DNA from: Escherichia phage a20
Length of the DNA: 64,000 nt
Sequence record: OQ067374.1
Direction: 5' to 3' (one strand)
In this document: in pieces, positions 1,596 to 14,530 of the stretch
Numbering within the stretch: the first letter of the stretch is position 1
How the letters are laid out: every line of letters begins with the position of its first letter
Translations under genes and position numbers: made by a program
The notes under the pieces: generated by a model
Told to the model about the DNA's origin: nothing
Database searches by the model: none
Seen by the model: only the letters and a program-made list of their open reading frames with translations

Positions 1596-2495
1596 TTATT
1601 CCTCGATTACGACATCTTCATATTTAGGTATATTATACGGTGAAGAAATTAAAGCATTAAAGTAGATGAACTCACCAAGACCTGGATGAAATACTTCTTC
1701 AGGATTTTCGAAATATTGAATCTTCGGACGTCCTTTAAGAATTTGATAGTATTCAGTTTTAGTTGGTTTAAAAATTCGAATCAACGCTTCTTCAGGATAC
1801 TTATTTCTGTCGAAGCTATTATTTGGATCGGTTATATAAAGCGGTTGGCCTAATTGAATTGCACATTCAACCACTTGTTCAAAACGATAGCATGGGTCAC
1901 TAATTCGAAATGGATGAAAAATACCATCTAGATGAATAGGAGCCAAATCACCTACAAGACGCTGCATGATGGAAGGACGTATAACTTTCTGCGTTACGAT
2001 AATCTTATTACCATCTGCACCTGCGTTAACCAGCACTTCTTTTTGACGTTCATTCAACACAGTAGTTTGAAGTGAACGATTAACCGACAACATATCGGTT
2101 TTTAAGAATTCGTCAATATAAAAACGTGGTTTATTAGGGTCTGCAGTGATATTGAAATTGAATTCTACATCAAAAGCGCCGTCATATCCGGTGATATCTG
2201 TGATTAGAAAATCACAATCATAATAAGCAATTAATGAATCAACCACAAATTCATTTTCAGTCCAGAAATATTTACGAGTGTTATACGCGTTATCTTTATA
2301 CCATAATGGAACAAACTTAAATTCTGGGAAAAGACGTTCACATTCTTTAATATCAGATGCATTACGTGGATATGTAATCACATCACCTGGATTAGCACGG
2401 TGCAAATGAAGTTGGAAGTTGCCATCCTTAAGGATAGCATACTGCCCAGTTTCATAAGACCGCATACTCAAAATAGGTACGCGGAAAATAGCCAT
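1596..2495 (-). CDS. hypothetical protein at the beta-glucosyltransferase locus
   Basis: 299 aa, tightly packed between the P-loop kinase and the hydroxymethylase; no resemblance to T4 beta-gt or alpha-gt as I recall them; contains a DCD (DxD-like) tripeptide. Confidence 0.55.
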   Translation of the reverse strand: MAIFRVPILSMRSYETGQYAILKDGNFQLHLHRANPGDVITYPRNASDIKECERLFPEFKFVPLWYKDNAYNTRKYFWTENEFVVDSLIAYYDCDFLITDITGYDGAFDVEFNFNITADPNKPRFYIDEFLKTDMLSVNRSLQTTVLNERQKEVLVNAGADGNKIIVTQKVIRPSIMQRLVGDLAPIHLDGIFHPFRISDPCYRFEQVVECAIQLGQPLYITDPNNSFDRNKYPEEALIRIFKPTKTEYYQILKGRPKIQYFENPEEVFHPGLGEFIYFNALISSPYNIPKYEDVVIEE

Positions 2496-3211
2496 TAGTC
2501 AAGGAATCCTTTAACATAATCAAAATCACGTTCAAACACATGGGCACTTACCATGGTATGAGTATAATCACCAACTTCTACACCACATTCGTTAGCGATA
2601 TAATGAAGTAATTTTCCTTGGAGATAAAAATCCAACTGCATAACAACAGCACAGTTCTGAGAACGCATATGACAGTGGGTATAAAGCTTACCATCACGAA
2701 TATAATAAGTCACTGAGTCAGTACATGGATATTCAAGAGTTTCGTCCGAATCAAGCAAAGCCTGATCAGAACTTTCTAGAATTTGGAACACAACTCTTCG
2801 AGAGTTAGGCTTCTCTTTAAGTTCTTTTAGAAGAGCTGGTAATTGGGCCGCAATGCGAGGACCATAGAAAGTGTTGAAGTTCGCCGGCAAAACATCTGAT
2901 TTTGGTTTAGAAATAAATTTAGCGACATTAGGATATGCCTTAAACGCTTCTTCTGCGTTGGTACCACCAGAAATCATAAACTTCCAGAAGTCTTCGGCAT
3001 ATTCATAAGAGATGCGGTTAATACGTGGGTCAGTCATTTTGAATGATGATGGAGTGTCAACAACTACTGTCATAGACCCAATTTCATTACAACGTCCAAT
3101 ACGAGAATCAGTTACGAATTCCGGGTTTTCTAAAATTTCACGATTGACTGCTTTAAATGCGGTTTGAAAATCTGCGGCTTTGATATATTTCATTGTGTTA
3201 TGTTTTCCCAT
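2495..3211 (-). CDS. 42: deoxypyrimidylate hydroxymethylase (thymidylate synthase superfamily, gp42-like, divergent)
   Basis: 238 aa; SRRVVFQ ... YPCTDSVTYYIRDGKLYTHCHMRSQN resembles the catalytic-Cys region of T4 dCMP hydroxymethylase; syntenic with gene 42; GAGGT precedes the ATG. Confidence 0.65.
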   Translation of the reverse strand: MGKHNTMKYIKAADFQTAFKAVNREILENPEFVTDSRIGRCNEIGSMTVVVDTPSSFKMTDPRINRISYEYAEDFWKFMISGGTNAEEAFKAYPNVAKFISKPKSDVLPANFNTFYGPRIAAQLPALLKELKEKPNSRRVVFQILESSDQALLDSDETLEYPCTDSVTYYIRDGKLYTHCHMRSQNCAVVMQLDFYLQGKLLHYIANECGVEVGDYTHTMVSAHVFERDFDYVKGFLD

Positions 3212-3253: not shown

Positions 3254-3493
3254 TTATTTGAATTTCTTAGCGATGTTGATATAACGTAAAGCTTCAGCAT
3301 CGATACTTCCAAGAACACTATGAAGAAATGCATCAGCGTAGTATTCCAATTGAACAGGTTCTTTAATCACTTTAGCCGCTTTGGTTCCAAACAGGCCCAT
3401 AAGGGCCTTTTTAAGAATTTGTTCATTAGTGTTCAGTTTCATAGTCAAAATCTCTTCATTAAGTTGGTGGTTAAAAGTTTTTCTAGAAATCAT
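3254..3493 (-). CDS. hypothetical small protein
   Basis: 79 aa ORF in operon context; no motif recognised. Confidence 0.4.
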   Translation of the reverse strand: MISRKTFNHQLNEEILTMKLNTNEQILKKALMGLFGTKAAKVIKEPVQLEYYADAFLHSVLGSIDAEALRYINIAKKFK

Positions 3494-4650
3494 TCTGGGT
3501 ACCTCAAAGCGTCATCAGAGTTAGTTATATCAATAATAGATATAGAATTTTCTGATAACCCATTTTTAGATAACTGACGTTTATAATATCTTTCACAATA
3601 TGTACACGTCGTCCCGCAGATTTCATTAGCACAATCGAAATCTGGATGTCTGAACCACCTTTTTTCTAAAAAGCCATCTAACAAAGAGGTTTCAATATTT
3701 ACTGTATGTGAAAACTCAGTTTCGTTTTCAAGAGTGAAAATAGTCTCTAAAGGCTTCCACAGTTCTAACAAATTACCTTCAAACTTTTCAGAAGCGTATG
3801 CTTCAAGAACTTTCAAAATGTAGTCTGTGCTACCTGTACGTCCTGAAACTTTGAATTGAGTGATACCAATATCATTATAAAGTTTCAAATCTTGAGGACG
3901 AACAAAACGAGTTCTCAACCAGTTAAATGGGTCTGTATCACGAGCTTTAATGCAGTGTTGCATTGGATATCCGTTTAAGGATTTAGCATCATCAGCTGTA
4001 ACATCAGTACTATGGAAAATATAGCAAGAGTCACGATAGCTACAATGTGTTGTATACCCTTTACCAGCATTAGAACAGAACTCATTTACAAGAACTTCAA
4101 ATATTATATTGTTCTTATTGCAAAACTCTGCTGCACGCTTCAGGAAAGAAACTGAACGGTTCTTATGAATTCCACAGCAGACCTTTTTGATATTATATTG
4201 GTCATGCAAGTATTTGATTTGAGTTACAGCATCGACATGTAGAATTGTTGAAACTTCAATCTCAATGTCTTTATTGACTTCACGAACAATTTCCATAACA
4301 ACAGGGTTAGCGATAGTAATACGCCATACGCCTATTGACCAAAGATACTGAACATAATCCTGAATAGCTTTCTTCTTCCACTCAACTAGTTCTCTTTTTG
4401 AACCAGGATTTATCGTGTTGAGTGTATAGTTAAAGCAAATACCTAATTCGTTACAACGTTTAACGTAATCTTCTAACATCTTTTTGTCAACGTCAGGAAG
4501 CCTAAAATCAGGTCTGGCTGCTACAAAAGCCATTTCTCTTGTAGAGCCGTATACTTCGTTTATCAAGCTATTAGGATAAGTTTTATTGAGCTCTACGATT
4601 TTATCAAGAAGAGCTAAATCAAAATTCGTTCCAATTTTAAAAGTATTCAT
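3490..4650 (-). CDS. hypothetical protein with C-terminal CX4CX3CX2C cysteine cluster
   Basis: 386 aa; C-terminal CANEICGTTCTYC plus further scattered Cys; no family confidently assigned. Confidence 0.6.
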   Translation of the reverse strand: MNTFKIGTNFDLALLDKIVELNKTYPNSLINEVYGSTREMAFVAARPDFRLPDVDKKMLEDYVKRCNELGICFNYTLNTINPGSKRELVEWKKKAIQDYVQYLWSIGVWRITIANPVVMEIVREVNKDIEIEVSTILHVDAVTQIKYLHDQYNIKKVCCGIHKNRSVSFLKRAAEFCNKNNIIFEVLVNEFCSNAGKGYTTHCSYRDSCYIFHSTDVTADDAKSLNGYPMQHCIKARDTDPFNWLRTRFVRPQDLKLYNDIGITQFKVSGRTGSTDYILKVLEAYASEKFEGNLLELWKPLETIFTLENETEFSHTVNIETSLLDGFLEKRWFRHPDFDCANEICGTTCTYCERYYKRQLSKNGLSENSISIIDITNSDDALRYPE

Positions 4651-4707
4651 TTTTTTTGCATCTCACGTTAATTGATGCGATGGTTTTTGCAGGTCTTACT
4701 TAAATTA

Positions 4708-5097
4708 TTATAGATTCGGTTTATATGATTTAAATGTTTCGAATTCGCCTTTATTCATAAGAGCTTTGAATTCGTCAGGACGCATAGCTTTGTCGTCGAT
4801 AATCCAATCATATACTGGTTTATGTGTTAGCAAATTATGGTACTTCAAACCAATGTTTTCCAAGTTCTGAATCAGACTTGGGAGAATGTCAATTGCTATA
4901 CGTCCAGGACCTACTGACTTCATACCGCGAGCAGTGTAAAGCGTTATGGTATGCCCTGCATCATACAGAGCATTAATAGCAGTCACCATTTCGACGTCTG
5001 GTTTGAAGTTCACGTAATCACGATTGTTATTCCACTCTGTTATACAATCATCGACGTCCACGCAAAGATGTAATGGTTTCATAGCAATATCCTTCAA
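4708..5097 (-). CDS. HAD-superfamily phosphatase-like protein
   Basis: 129 aa; LCVDVDDCIT resembles HAD motif I (DxDx); start may be the second Met at 5082. Its 5' end overlaps the 3' end of the homing endonuclease gene. Confidence 0.5.
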   Translation of the reverse strand: MKDIAMKPLHLCVDVDDCITEWNNNRDYVNFKPDVEMVTAINALYDAGHTITLYTARGMKSVGPGRIAIDILPSLIQNLENIGLKYHNLLTHKPVYDWIIDDKAMRPDEFKALMNKGEFETFKSYKPNL

Positions 5098-5809
5098 TAG
5101 AATTTTTAATATTATCAGCTATACGCTTTCTAGGAATACCCGTTTTCTTTTCAGCTATCCTAAGAGATTCATAGTAATTTTCGTTTATTTTAACAAATTT
5201 TTGAGACTTGTGAGCATTTTTGCTTTCGTCCTGATATCGATAATTAAGATATTTAGGCGATTTTACTCTCTTTTGAATCGTGGCAGAAGATATACCCAAA
5301 TCTTTAGCCGCTTCCCGACAGGATTCATAATATTTGCCATCTACATTAATCTTTAGACCATGTAATGCAGGTTTACCATACCTCCTGTGCTTTTCTTTAC
5401 CCCTAGCTATAGATTCAGCTGACAAAGTTTTACCCCATCTTGGGTTTTTATCACCAACTAAACGTCCTTTATTTGCCTTAGAAATTTTATCCTTGGACCT
5501 TTGGGATAACCCGTCAGAACCGCCTTCGCCACCAGTTTTAAGATTGTAATAATTTGGGTCTTTAACTATGTCTAATGTTATTAGAGCCTTTTCAGCTATT
5601 TTTAATTCTTCTCTCGAGCTATGGTAGGAAATGATTTCTTTAAGAAAATTTTCCTTCCCGTATTTCCTTTCAGCCTTTTTATATAATTTACCAGAACCTT
5701 TATATAAATCTAAAGGCTCGGCTTCTTCAGCCGAGTGCATTCCTAAATAAACTTTACCGTTTATAAGATTAGTAGTTTTGTAGAGATAATGTATCAAATT
5801 CGTTCCCAT
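5048..5809 (-). CDS. GIY-YIG homing endonuclease (seg-like)
   Basis: 253 aa; N-terminal IHYLYKTTNLINGKVYLGMHS is a GIY-YIG module; basic C-terminal DNA-binding region. Confidence 0.8.
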   Translation of the reverse strand: MGTNLIHYLYKTTNLINGKVYLGMHSAEEAEPLDLYKGSGKLYKKAERKYGKENFLKEIISYHSSREELKIAEKALITLDIVKDPNYYNLKTGGEGGSDGLSQRSKDKISKANKGRLVGDKNPRWGKTLSAESIARGKEKHRRYGKPALHGLKINVDGKYYESCREAAKDLGISSATIQKRVKSPKYLNYRYQDESKNAHKSQKFVKINENYYESLRIAEKKTGIPRKRIADNIKNSIEGYCYETITSLRGRR

Positions 5810-7479
5810 TGATGAGTGATATCGCCACCGATTGGACGATAGGAAACACCAGTTTCTTTATCAGTTAGTACCCATTTACCAGGATTTTTTGTAATCAGAG
5901 TAGCCGTTACAGGTTCTGCTACGTCATAACTAATAGAGCCGTCTTGAAGTACACGGCCCATATTACGTAATTGCTTAGTCAGAAGTTCCATACCTTTATA
6001 ATATGCGGCTACCGCTTTAAGTGGATTATTCTTGAAATAACCACCTAATGCAATCCAGATAATTGCCACTGCCAAATGATGATACTCGTTAAACGAACTC
6101 ATCTTTCCATATTTGTAAACTAATGGATTGATGTTAATAGTCACATTACAAGTTGTTTCATCAATAGTAAACTGTCCCCAGGTCGGATTAGCATTGAATT
6201 CATCATAACCTGAAACAGCATAAAGCACTTTAGCTTCATCATACAATTTTGGCCCGTAAATCTTGGTTTCGCCAAAATATCCACGAGGGTCGATAAACTT
6301 AACTTCGCCGTTATCAGTAATCATAGTATTACTGAAGTTCGGGTCACCATGAATAACAGAGTACTGTCCCTGAGAACGGTTATGATAACGAATAAGATGT
6401 TCTAAAGCTTGTTTCAGCATTGGCTTCAGACGTCCAATCTTAGTGTAGTTCACATGTGTGATTTTACCAAATGAATCAATCAATGGTTGAATGCTTTCAC
6501 AACGATCAATAACTTTCGTATAGAATTCTTTAGTGAAATCACGACGAACAGTTTCAGGACTTACAAAATAAGTGTCTGTGCTGAATTTCAGTGCATCTAA
6601 AATTGTATCAACAATTTGTGGACGAGCAAGACTTGATTTGGATTTAATATATTCAAATGCCGGCTTACCTTTAATGCGTTCCATTTCAAAGTTATTTTCA
6701 TTAACAGAAACTAACTGAGGGACTGAATCTGATTTCACTTTCAAATACCACGAAATCTCATCTTTCTGAAGAGCTCGGCCCTGTTCGGTTAATGCGAATT
6801 TAGTTACAGTTTCTTCACCGATTTCAACTGCATTAAAACTACGATTAAGTTCACGAACTTCATGAGCTTTTTCAAGTTTAGGCATATCACCTAAATCAAT
6901 TAGATTCATAAGCTCTGATTTATTGAATGCGCCGCTGTAAAGGAATTCTACGAAATCACGTCCTTTGCAGTATTCATGAATTTCTTCATCAGTAGAACCC
7001 ATATAGAATTCCCAGTCTTTGAACTGATAAATTCCTACAACATTACCACCTGTTGAACCTACGTTAGTGATATTTTCACCGTCGAAATTATATCGACATT
7101 CGTCGCCCTTAACATAGATTGCGTTAACATTCCAAGACCATGAACCAAAATCGGGAATAATATCACACCAGTTAACAATTACATTATGGCCGTCTAAATC
7201 TTTGTGTAATTTAGCAAGAGCATAAGCAGATCCATACGCTTCATCAACTGTACGAATAGTCACATTGAACCCTTCTTGCTCACAATAAGCTCGAACAGTT
7301 TCAGCAAATTTTGAATGAACTACTACAATAATTTCATCTGCGCCTAGGTCAGAATAAATTGTATACAAATTGCTCAGAATAGTGTCTTGTTTATAGTTAA
7401 CAAGCACCTTAGGAATATGGTGAGTAATTGGATATAAACGAGTTGCCAGTCCAGCACCAAGAATAACAGCTTTTTTCAT
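5794..7479 (-). CDS. bifunctional sugar-1-phosphate nucleotidyltransferase / APH-like sugar kinase
   Basis: 561 aa; N-terminus MKKAVILGAGLATRLYPITHHIPKVLV is the classic G-x-G-T-R-x-x-P nucleotidyltransferase signature; C-terminal VIHGDPNFSNTMI ... FIDPRG is the HGD-x4-N catalytic loop of APH/choline-kinase-type kinases. Confidence 0.75.
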   Translation of the reverse strand: MKKAVILGAGLATRLYPITHHIPKVLVNYKQDTILSNLYTIYSDLGADEIIVVVHSKFAETVRAYCEQEGFNVTIRTVDEAYGSAYALAKLHKDLDGHNVIVNWCDIIPDFGSWSWNVNAIYVKGDECRYNFDGENITNVGSTGGNVVGIYQFKDWEFYMGSTDEEIHEYCKGRDFVEFLYSGAFNKSELMNLIDLGDMPKLEKAHEVRELNRSFNAVEIGEETVTKFALTEQGRALQKDEISWYLKVKSDSVPQLVSVNENNFEMERIKGKPAFEYIKSKSSLARPQIVDTILDALKFSTDTYFVSPETVRRDFTKEFYTKVIDRCESIQPLIDSFGKITHVNYTKIGRLKPMLKQALEHLIRYHNRSQGQYSVIHGDPNFSNTMITDNGEVKFIDPRGYFGETKIYGPKLYDEAKVLYAVSGYDEFNANPTWGQFTIDETTCNVTININPLVYKYGKMSSFNEYHHLAVAIIWIALGGYFKNNPLKAVAAYYKGMELLTKQLRNMGRVLQDGSISYDVAEPVTATLITKNPGKWVLTDKETGVSYRPIGGDITHQWERI

Positions 7480-7663
7480 GTTGTGGTCCTCATTGGTAAG
7501 TAGGAGTATTGTACACTATTCTAGTTAAAGCATTCATACTTTGCTTGTAGTCCAATCATAATCCATCCAATTACAAGTGTTGGAATCATTACCGGAGCCG
7601 TTAAGCTCCAGTAGATAGTCATGACAAGCATCAATAGTAAAAGTCCTATTGCTATTGCTTTCA

Positions 7664-8296
7664 TTATTCGCCTCGTAACATGGCACCTAGTGCACCACCA
7701 GGGTGGAACTTAAGGAAATCATTAGAGGTAAATCCACGTTCAGACGAAAGGTTGATAGCAAACGTATCGATAAGCGCTAACAACAATGTAGTGGACATAG
7801 TCGGAGCCAGAGAATTCTCATCAACCTCTACTGCGATGCCTGTACAGAAAGAGTAATCAAAAAGGGCTTCATTTTCTTGTGGAATGTCTGGGTTACAATG
7901 CAACAGAATCTGTTTGACGTTCGGACGAATCATTTTAAGATGCTTAGCCACGCCTATCATTTCTTCAGTTTTACCAGAACGACTAATATGAATCAACACA
8001 TCATTAGGCGCAATGAATCCTGCATCACCGTGAGAATAATGCCCAGTGTTCAAGTACATACTCGGGATACCTAGTGAAGCAAAAGTCTCGGAAGCTTTAG
8101 TTGCGATATTAGCATTCTTACCAACACCTGTAATAATTACTCGGCTTTCATAATTACTAAGTCCCGGGCGTCGAAGAGTTTCTAGAATAGCATTATAACG
8201 AGCAGGGTTTTGACTAATTACTTTGGCCATAGCGGCCAAAGAAGAAGCTTGTTTTATGATTGCGTCAATAGCGATAGTAATAGGAGTAGTTTTCAT
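7664..8296 (-). CDS. SIS-domain sugar-phosphate isomerase (KdsD/KpsF-type, arabinose-5-phosphate isomerase-like, no CBS domains)
   Basis: 210 aa; VIITGVGKNANIATKASETFASLGIPS...HGDAGFIAPNDVLIHISRSGKTEE and LAPTMSTT...FHPGGALG align closely with the SIS domain of E. coli KdsD as I recall it. Confidence 0.75.
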   Translation of the reverse strand: MKTTPITIAIDAIIKQASSLAAMAKVISQNPARYNAILETLRRPGLSNYESRVIITGVGKNANIATKASETFASLGIPSMYLNTGHYSHGDAGFIAPNDVLIHISRSGKTEEMIGVAKHLKMIRPNVKQILLHCNPDIPQENEALFDYSFCTGIAVEVDENSLAPTMSTTLLLALIDTFAINLSSERGFTSNDFLKFHPGGALGAMLRGE

Positions 8297-14453: not shown

Positions 14454-14530
14454 TATAAATCTCCGTGATTAAAGCAATATAAATAGGTTTATCAATTTAT
14501 CTGTTGCTGTATCAAATAAGGATTTAGTAA

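Follow-up and report, generated by a model that had tools for sequence, protein, structure and literature searches.

The DNA-modification cassette of Escherichia phage a20 (OQ067374.1) contains an additional open reading frame between two genes of the same biosynthetic pathway, and the questions raised by this locus are what the gene is, how it came to lie at this particular junction and whether its presence tells anything about the mobility of the cassette. A reading of the sequence alone had proposed a GIY-YIG homing endonuclease at 5048-5809 that invaded between pathway genes and may mark the cassette as horizontally mobile. The whole stretch of 64,000 nucleotides that was analysed is called the window here, and all positions refer to it. 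In the ORF list the reading frame is given as 5048..5809 on the minus strand, with an ATG start and a product of 253 aa. Together with its neighbours it forms the following arrangement.

5048..5809, minus strand: free-standing Seg-type GIY-YIG homing endonuclease ORF (assigned by Pfam, PHROG, a family profile and AF2/Foldseek).
5794..7479, minus strand: AfhE-like bifunctional nucleotidyltransferase/kinase, 561 aa, homologue of RB69 gp52:53 (PMC13326640).
4708..5082, minus strand: AfhF-like HAD phosphatase, 124 aa from the ATG at 5082, homologue of RB69 gp51 (PMC13326640).

Further downstream of the HAD gene, on the same strand, are a U32-family protein (3490..4650) and a thymidylate-synthase homologue (2495..3211). 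On the other side of the cassette lie the DNA polymerase gp43, regA and gp62, by which the window is recognised as coming from a T-even-type phage, and megablast placed it in Mosigvirus (RB69-like) with 96-99% identity. The DNA of RB69 bears arabinosylated 5-hydroxycytosine (PMC13326640, 2026). In that phage gp48, the thymidylate-synthase homologue, is the 5-hydroxy-dCMP synthase and gp55 the arabinose-5-P isomerase, while gp52:53 is the counterpart of AfhE (kinase and UDP-arabinose pyrophosphorylase) and gp51 that of the HAD phosphatase AfhF (PMC13326640). What the earlier reading had termed a modification cassette is now described as the pathway for arabinosyl-5-hydroxycytosine (PMC13326640). 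The role assignments of gp52:53 and gp51 place the endonuclease ORF between an afhE-like gene, for an arabinose-5-P kinase/UDP-arabinose pyrophosphorylase, and an afhF-like gene. A homing endonuclease is absent from the text of the 2026 NAR paper on the cassette (PMC13326640), and a full-text literature search found no paper discussing the window endonuclease; in GenBank, "homing endonuclease" is already the automatic label for identical proteins and for gp079 of Acinetobacter phage Ac42. No paralogues of the endonuclease were detected in the 64-kb window by tblastn (E<=1e-3), and a foreign base composition was not seen, the insert having 34.4% GC vs 37.1% for the window.

The identity of the protein was supported by several comparisons. 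It matched PHROG 314 ("homing endonuclease") with E=3e-43 and, at or above the Pfam cutoffs, I-TevI_DNA-bd (PF20987, 33.6 bits), NUMOD1 (24.6) and NUMOD3 (20.4). Taken alone, the window protein stayed under the cutoffs for the GIY-YIG models (18.6 vs 25 bits for SegE_GIY-YIG), but SegE_GIY-YIG (PF19835) was matched by all eight of eight family members and PF01541 by three of them. When a profile of 16 family sequences was compared with PDB, residues 9-90 matched the catalytic domain of I-TevI (1mk0/1ln0, E=0.006), and the same profile matched the I-TevI DNA-binding domain (1i3j, E=1e-4). Direct hhalign of an eight-sequence family against an I-TevI sequence aligned the DNA-binding domain alone, at a probability of 50%. 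The AF2 model had a mean pLDDT of 82, and its three best Foldseek matches in PDB were 1i3j, 1ln0_B (probability 0.98, target TM 0.66) and 1ln0_A. The domains are, in residues of the protein:

~5-95: N-terminal GIY-YIG domain.
~102-135: NUMOD3 linker.
~152-192 and ~203-246: two C-terminal HTH/NUMOD1-like modules.

Five residues, Y10, Y21, G23, E73 and N89, are invariant across 16 homologues and are expected to correspond to the Tyr of GIY, the Tyr-x-Gly of YIG, the catalytic Glu and the Asn. The catalytic Arg of I-TevI (R27) falls in an insertion relative to the endonuclease family in the profile alignment and has no alignable counterpart; the family has an invariant Y36-x-G38-S39-G40, and K41 is invariant among the eight close homologues. 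The assignment as a Seg-type GIY-YIG endonuclease gene is confirmed by the PHROG 314, I-TevI profile and Foldseek matches, and the ORF lies exactly where the sequence-only reading had put it. The protein adds an as yet uncharacterised member to the familiar Seg family of free-standing enzymes.

Two characterised proteins come close to it. Like I-TevI, the window endonuclease combines a GIY-YIG catalytic domain with a flexible NUMOD3-type linker and a C-terminal HTH, and both are associated with the coding sequence of a conserved active-site motif of an enzyme. However, I-TevI is encoded by a group I intron (T4 td), whereas the window endonuclease lies between two separate genes, and the zinc finger of I-TevI is not evident in it. 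Cleavage by I-TevI is at CNNNG, 23-25 bp away from its insertion site. Among characterised proteins, the nearest relative is SegB (35.5% identity over residues 5-201; tblastn E ~5e-21 with SegB of the T4-like phage e11/2). In T4, SegB is a free-standing GIY-YIG homing endonuclease encoded within the cluster of tRNA genes (Brok-Volchanskaya et al. 2008, PMC2330249). The two proteins share an N-terminal GIY-YIG domain with Y-x-G-S-G, followed by NUMOD3, and both are free-standing and optional in a T-even genome. The site and presumed target of SegB are in the tRNA region, whereas the window endonuclease lies at the afhE/afhF junction, is longer in its C-terminal region, where it has two HTH modules, and has a 3' end that is dual-coded with the downstream gene.

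Comparison with relatives showed that the gene is an optional insertion between the two pathway genes. In the phage collection, three records (Escherichia phages NRG-P0074, JM17 and BEU50) encode the protein, each with 100% amino acid identity to that of the window and at the same site, and the next match is that of Ac42 with 51%. About 150 Mosigvirus records have flanks of 95-99% identity and skip the endonuclease gene, leaving a precise empty site; on the invasion between pathway genes the earlier reading was right. The window is apparently a fourth carrier, as for another 20-kb segment its best record has 96.9% identity (96% coverage). Compared with RB69, 724 nt (5074..5797) are found where the clean empty site has 25 nt. 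The empty junction ...CAATGGGAACGAATCTAATGCACCGTGTAGAAAACATGCTTAATCTTTGTTTTGATGTCGATGAT... is common to all eight aligned empty-site genomes, save scattered SNPs, and in these genomes the afhE stop is coupled to the afhF start (TAATG). Instead of being present in all relatives with no signature at the target site, the gene occurs in three of ~155 close relatives and is accompanied by four carrier-private substitutions. An alignment covering 11 kb of the window and 11 relatives showed carrier-private bases in a single interval only, besides two isolated SNPs at 579 and 10017.

5056..5797, minus strand: carrier-specific DNA, i.e., the insert and the donor-derived 5' end of the HAD gene (from the alignment with relatives).

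Two other origins were considered and rejected. A large donor block or an extended co-conversion tract does not account for the locus, as the flanks are ordinary Mosigvirus mosaic; the carriers differ from each other at SNPs close to the insert (4983 at ~75 bp, 5944 at ~150 bp), and linkage among them is lost within ~75-150 bp. An intron-encoded endonuclease of the I-TevI kind is ruled out, as Rfam, searched over 4000..8000 at E<=1, gave no match to group I introns or to any other RNA family, and both flanking genes are complete and separate. The AfhE and AfhF ORFs, separate here, are adjacent to each other in the relatives, in line with a free-standing placement.

The four Mosigvirus copies differ by seven SNPs, all seven at third positions and synonymous (chance p 2e-5 to 5e-4), which shows that the gene is under purifying selection. 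Family members of 50-71% identity also keep the full length and 87 invariant positions. These observations argue that the gene may well encode a working protein. Among the four copies the protein is identical and the DNA near-identical, while their genomic backgrounds differ by 1-2% on average and by up to 5% in single 500-nt bins. Between carriers, divergence of the gene is only 2.5-3 times lower than that of its flanks, and this weakly suggests a recent horizontal spread.

The junction itself is tightly packed at both ends. As the earlier reading had stated, the 3' end of the endonuclease ORF overlaps the 5' end of the HAD gene; the overlap measures 35 nt from the ATG at 5082, the start that is backed by homologues, or 50 nt from the TTG at 5097 of the mechanically called ORF. 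An overlap at the other end had gone unnoticed in that reading: the endonuclease overlaps the upstream gene by 16 nt from ATG 5809, or by 2 nt from TTG 5797 in a TTGA stop/start. The ATG at 5809 sits four codons upstream of this TTG, within host DNA. The signals at the junction are as follows.

5795..5797, minus strand: TTG, probable native start of the endonuclease, aligning with the M-[ILV]-H-Y N-terminus of all homologues.
5717..5735, minus strand: 7-bp GC-rich hairpin in the 5' coding region of the endonuclease, retained in two homologues by synonymous compensatory changes.
5090..5095, minus strand: GAAGGA, Shine-Dalgarno-like sequence for the HAD gene inside the 3' end of the endonuclease, conserved in HAD-overlapping homologues.
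5048..5050, minus strand: endonuclease stop TGA, an out-of-frame reading of GAT GAT in HAD motif I (DVDD).

The TGA stop of the upstream gene (5794..5796) overlaps the TTG as TTGA. The same TTGA overlap is found in four further loci with the gene (L013, L021, L022 and L071), and L014 has GTGA; this recurrence makes it likely that the endonuclease is expressed by translational coupling to the ORF upstream of it. Sigma-70-like matches that could serve as a promoter of its own were no commoner than in shuffled sequences, and there is no T4 late promoter near the endonuclease, the nearest exact TATAAATA being at 14478. The hairpin at 5717..5735 may attenuate expression of the endonuclease. In T4, overlap with or coupling to the upstream ORF has been described for segC, segF, mobA, mobC and mobE (PMC2988022), and the overlap noted in the earlier reading is thus typical of the class. 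The likeness extends to the start codon overlapping the end of the upstream gene (TTGA here, UAAUGA in nrdA/mobE), to the lack of a good independent translation initiation region and to an internal hairpin that may limit expression (PMC2988022). The window element differs from these T4 genes in that it also overlaps the downstream gene, by 35 nt, and provides its start.

The insertion has left the protein of one neighbour unchanged and has altered the beginning of the other. The C-terminus HQWERI of AfhE is intact despite the insertion (ATC TAA changed to ATT TGA). In the HAD protein, the N-terminus MH[HR]VENMLNLCF of the empty-site relatives is replaced by MKPLHLCV, and the insertion supplies AfhF with a new ribosome-binding site, a start codon and the first eight codons. 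Over 35 nt the end of the endonuclease ORF is dual-coded, including the HAD ATG at 5082 and the first 11 HAD codons in another frame. This dual-coding Shine-Dalgarno/ATG segment is kept in five of eight aligned family members. The endonuclease stop at 5048..5050 sits in DNA that is common to empty-site genomes.

Such an arrangement could also be explained if the gene were retained as a partly domesticated part of the operon, supplying the ribosome-binding site, start and N-terminus of AfhF and the coupling to AfhE, with a deletion that would cripple DNA modification; the protein might then be mainly a DNA-binding regulator or an excluder of competing phages. The position of GAAGGA and the HAD ATG within the endonuclease ORF, in a segment kept in most of the aligned family members, agrees with this, as do the conserved TTGA/GTGA coupling, the lack of a promoter of its own above chance and the fact that I-TevI doubles as a transcriptional autorepressor (PMC2988022). 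However, more than 95% of close relatives are without the gene, which therefore gives no required function; their empty counterparts keep an intact operon; and purifying selection acts across the whole protein, with the nuclease residues Y10, Y21, G23, E73 and N89 invariant. Domestication is consequently considered very unlikely.

A search among 5.8 billion proteins gave full-length matches of 53-71% identity. All ten homologues of at least 50% identity with readable context (the window type, Ac42, L013-L016, L021, L022, L070 and L071) sit directly upstream of a HAD gene. In most of these loci the nucleotidyltransferase/kinase gene is immediately upstream, with small ORFs intervening in Ac42 and L071. 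The host phages of the homologues are divergent T4-like phages, Acinetobacter phage Ac42 among them. Ac42 gp079 (51% identity) likewise lies immediately upstream of the HAD gene in a homologous cassette and is linked to the same TTTGCGTGGAC, but it has no HAD overlap, and three small ORFs lie between it and afhE. About 57 other Acinetobacter phage records have afhE and the HAD gene adjacent, without the endonuclease. A second, independent pair is formed by L021 with the gene and L020 without it: 738 nt replace 23 nt, and the flanks have 86-94% identity, with the first Asp codon of motif I again marking the right boundary. The lineage is quite likely one of Seg-type homing endonuclease genes specialised on the afhE/afhF junction.

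The same distribution could result if the gene were ancestral at this junction and had been precisely deleted in most lineages, i.e., by retention and not invasion. Very divergent phages have it at one and the same junction (50-71% protein identity), which implies an old association; empty alleles of the L020 type, with a V/I codon and an MKKLKL-type N-terminus, resemble the footprints of a loss, and L022 is a decaying copy. On the other hand, the aligned empty sites in Mosigvirus share the coupled junction ATCTAATG...CTTTGTTTTGAT and are free of footprints, and a recent introduction fits better with four near-identical copies in differing backgrounds. Ancestral presence with loss in most lineages is hardly probable. 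A homing cycle of gain and loss covers both processes, and this alternative is more a matter of timing than of mechanism.

The preferred reading, a mobile gene specialised on this junction, leads to the question of where its enzyme would cut and how carriers would escape. The only signature near the insert is in the HAD gene.

5056..5064, minus strand: HAD codons 7-9, TGC GTG GAC (C-V-D), vs TGT TTT GAT (C-F-D) in the aligned empty-site relatives.

Four substitutions lie within 7 nt (5056-5062), all of them from A/T to G/C, private to carriers and just before the Asp of motif I; apart from the isolated SNPs at 579 and 10017, they are the sole carrier-private substitutions outside the insert in Mosigvirus. 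The residue before the catalytic Asp is V, I or L in all nine intact copies (GTG, ATA or CTG). Among 25 empty T4-like loci sampled from IMG/VR irrespective of this residue, it is F in 23 and another residue in two. The contrast of 9/9 non-Phe in intact copies vs 23/25 Phe in empty loci gives a Fisher p of 1e-6, for loci that are phylogenetically non-independent. L022, the single copy found beside an F-type site, lacks 22 aa, among them the otherwise invariant KISKANKGR segment of NUMOD3, and this deletion would be expected if a cleavable site could not persist beside an active enzyme. V or I is also seen in some empty alleles: two of these, L030 and L042, belong to the unselected sample, while L019 and L020 were looked up for their lack of Phe and stand outside the 25 loci; the association between non-Phe residues and the endonuclease is therefore one-way only. 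These empty V/I alleles fit resistant or post-loss alleles of a homing cycle.

Based on this pattern, we infer that the homing site may include CTTTGTTTTGAT and that the carrier allele could be immune, the candidate basis of immunity being the change from TGTTTTGAT to TGCGTGGAC. The 5' end of the HAD gene is physically linked to the endonuclease gene, and the presence of V, I or L in all carriers could also reflect shared ancestry of this linked end. Free-standing T4 endonucleases cut away from their own genes, often by hundreds of bp (PMC2988022), and the polymorphism at the junction may therefore be hitch-hiking donor sequence. In that case the endonuclease would be active but its cleavage site would lie at some distance (tens to hundreds of bp), in afhE or farther into afhF, and C-[VIL]-D would be co-converted donor sequence and not what confers immunity. 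There is precedent in SegF, SegG and SegE, in keeping with the T4 habit of cutting at a distance (PMC2988022); the empty alleles with V or I (L019, L020, L030 and L042) also agree with it, and the 5' end of the HAD gene is inseparable from the 3' end of the endonuclease, an overlap by which the two must be co-inherited. However, the Mosigvirus carriers have no other carrier-specific differences within several kb of the gene. A distant site would then not differ between carriers and non-carriers, and the enzyme would also cut the genome that carries it. Moreover, the carrier codon varies (GTG, ATA, CTG) and is never TTT/TTC except beside the copy with the NUMOD3 deletion. A distant cleavage site is accordingly rated as unlikely.

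The gene is probably best explained as a free-standing T4 Seg-type homing endonuclease gene specialised on the afhE/afhF junction and spread by intronless homing. In a mixed infection, the enzyme would cleave genomes that lack its gene, within or close to the 5' end of afhF and around the conserved HAD motif-I coding sequence CTTTGTTTTGATGTCGATGAT. The break would be repaired off the carrier genome, and the endonuclease gene would be copied in by what is called 'intronless homing'. The carrier would be protected by its own afhF allele, which has TGC GTG GAC instead of TGT TTT GAT. A more far-reaching version of this mechanism is doubtful but can be formulated: the enzyme would be a long-term specialist of the arabinosyl-5-hydroxycytosine operon, its target would be the C-poor HAD-motif stretch (TTAATCTTTGTTTTGAT), and the A/T to G/C changes would confer immunity via arabinosylated cytosines. 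These changes would put bulky arabinosylated cytosines into the recognition site and, at the protein level, change Phe to Val, Ile or Leu beside the catalytic Asp.

The suggestion that the gene may mark the cassette as horizontally mobile was not supported. The DNA of the element does not reach beyond 5056..5797, the donor-derived tract is very small, and synteny of the cassette is kept between genera: it adjoins gene 43/imm in Mosigvirus, Acinetobacter and metagenomic T4-like phages and is upstream of uvsX where the contig reaches that far. The identity of AfhE in other T4-like loci to the window protein ranges from 38% to 99%. This synteny and spread of identities fit vertical descent, and mobilisation of the cassette by the endonuclease is unsupported; the gene has no bearing on the mobility of the cassette itself.

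The endonuclease gene is a real but ordinary mobile element. For annotation, it accounts for the extra gene that a few RB69-like phages have in the arabinosyl-5-hydroxycytosine cluster and for their different AfhF N-terminus, and a list of pathway enzymes should leave this gene out. Three points of modest weight are added here: the lineage keeps strictly to the afhE/afhF junction, its junction with the catalytic motif of the HAD gene is dual-coded, and the immunity hypothesis can be sharply tested. The locus forms a compact natural system: besides carriers there are numerous empty sites, empty alleles that are candidates for resistance, and a single decaying copy, and all stages of a homing cycle are thus represented at one junction. 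The target hypothesis is sharply defined, as a 9-nt difference, and is testable on hypermodified DNA; a possible use would be to move markers into the modification operon of Mosigvirus. If the reading as a specialist with an immune allele is true, a selfish nuclease would shape the protein sequence of a DNA-modification enzyme, and phage hypermodification would act as a shield against the phage's own homing endonuclease. The cassette looks like a hot spot for homing-endonuclease-type genes.

Some further ORFs were observed around the cassette in other phages. In four IMG/VR loci another Seg-like ORF lies just downstream of the HAD gene, L021 has an additional NUMOD3 ORF, and in Ac42 a second endonuclease adjoins uvsX.

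For genes of homing endonucleases, the cassette of arabinosyl-5-hydroxycytosine genes appears to be a hot spot. In other phages, junctions of the cassette other than that between afhE and the HAD gene are also occupied by Seg-like or NUMOD3 endonuclease genes, at the following positions in their own loci:

~3363..3990, just 3' of the HAD gene, in four IMG/VR T4-like loci (L025, L026, L028 and L029)
7291..7824, adjoining uvsX, in Ac42 (L004)
3714..4352, upstream of the U32 gene, in the divergent T4-like locus L021

One homologue of the window endonuclease, in the divergent T4-like locus L022 (1831..2526), carries a deletion. It is missing 22 aa, including an invariant NUMOD3 segment, and has GGLGG in place of GGEGG, and is likely a decaying copy. 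Its neighbour is a HAD gene with a Phe-type (RB69-like) site.

The endonuclease ORF of the window contains a hairpin about 60-75 nt 3' of its start:

window 5717..5735, minus strand, GC-rich hairpin with a 7-bp stem, CTCGGCTGAAGAAGCCGAG

The stem is maintained in the homologues of L022, where paired synonymous changes preserve it (G-C to A-T and T-A to C-G), and of L013, another divergent T4-like locus, where G-U pairs are substituted. In the more distant homologues, another hairpin occupies a roughly equivalent position. By likeness to mobE, for which attenuation of expression by a hairpin has been described, this structure may attenuate expression of the endonuclease.

In genomes without the endonuclease gene, an ATG within the 3' end of afhE (CAATGG) lies in the HAD frame. 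The junctions equivalent to window 5797..5809 in two such empty-site relatives are:

4692..4707 in L007
4694..4709 in L012

Since this in-frame ATG was annotated as the start in two records (MGTNLMHR...), the HAD start in the empty genomes, with three candidate ATGs, is ambiguous. The first five codons (MGTNL) are common to the HAD gene so annotated and the endonuclease ORF of the window.

Two genes, the glycosyltransferase (window 1596..2495) and the AfhE-like gene (window 5794..7479), each form one unbroken ORF in the window, as they do in most relatives, but the RB69 reference record (L001) has them split into ORF046/047 and ORF052/053, respectively. The unsplit ORFs agree with the attribution of the RB69 splits to sequencing errors (PMC13326640).

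Downstream of the HAD gene are two further features:

window 4649..4652, intergenic T-run between the HAD stop and the start of the U32-family gene
window 3490..4650, minus strand, U32-family 'peptidase' gene inside the cassette

Among 12 aligned Mosigvirus genomes the T-run differs in length by up to 5 bases; it could be a homopolymer prone to slippage, or the differences could be an artefact of sequencing. The position of the U32-family gene is conserved in Mosigvirus and several metagenomic relatives, and the Acinetobacter versions of the cassette are without it. Its product has been given only a putative role as a 'sugar or heterocycle reductase' (PMC13326640).
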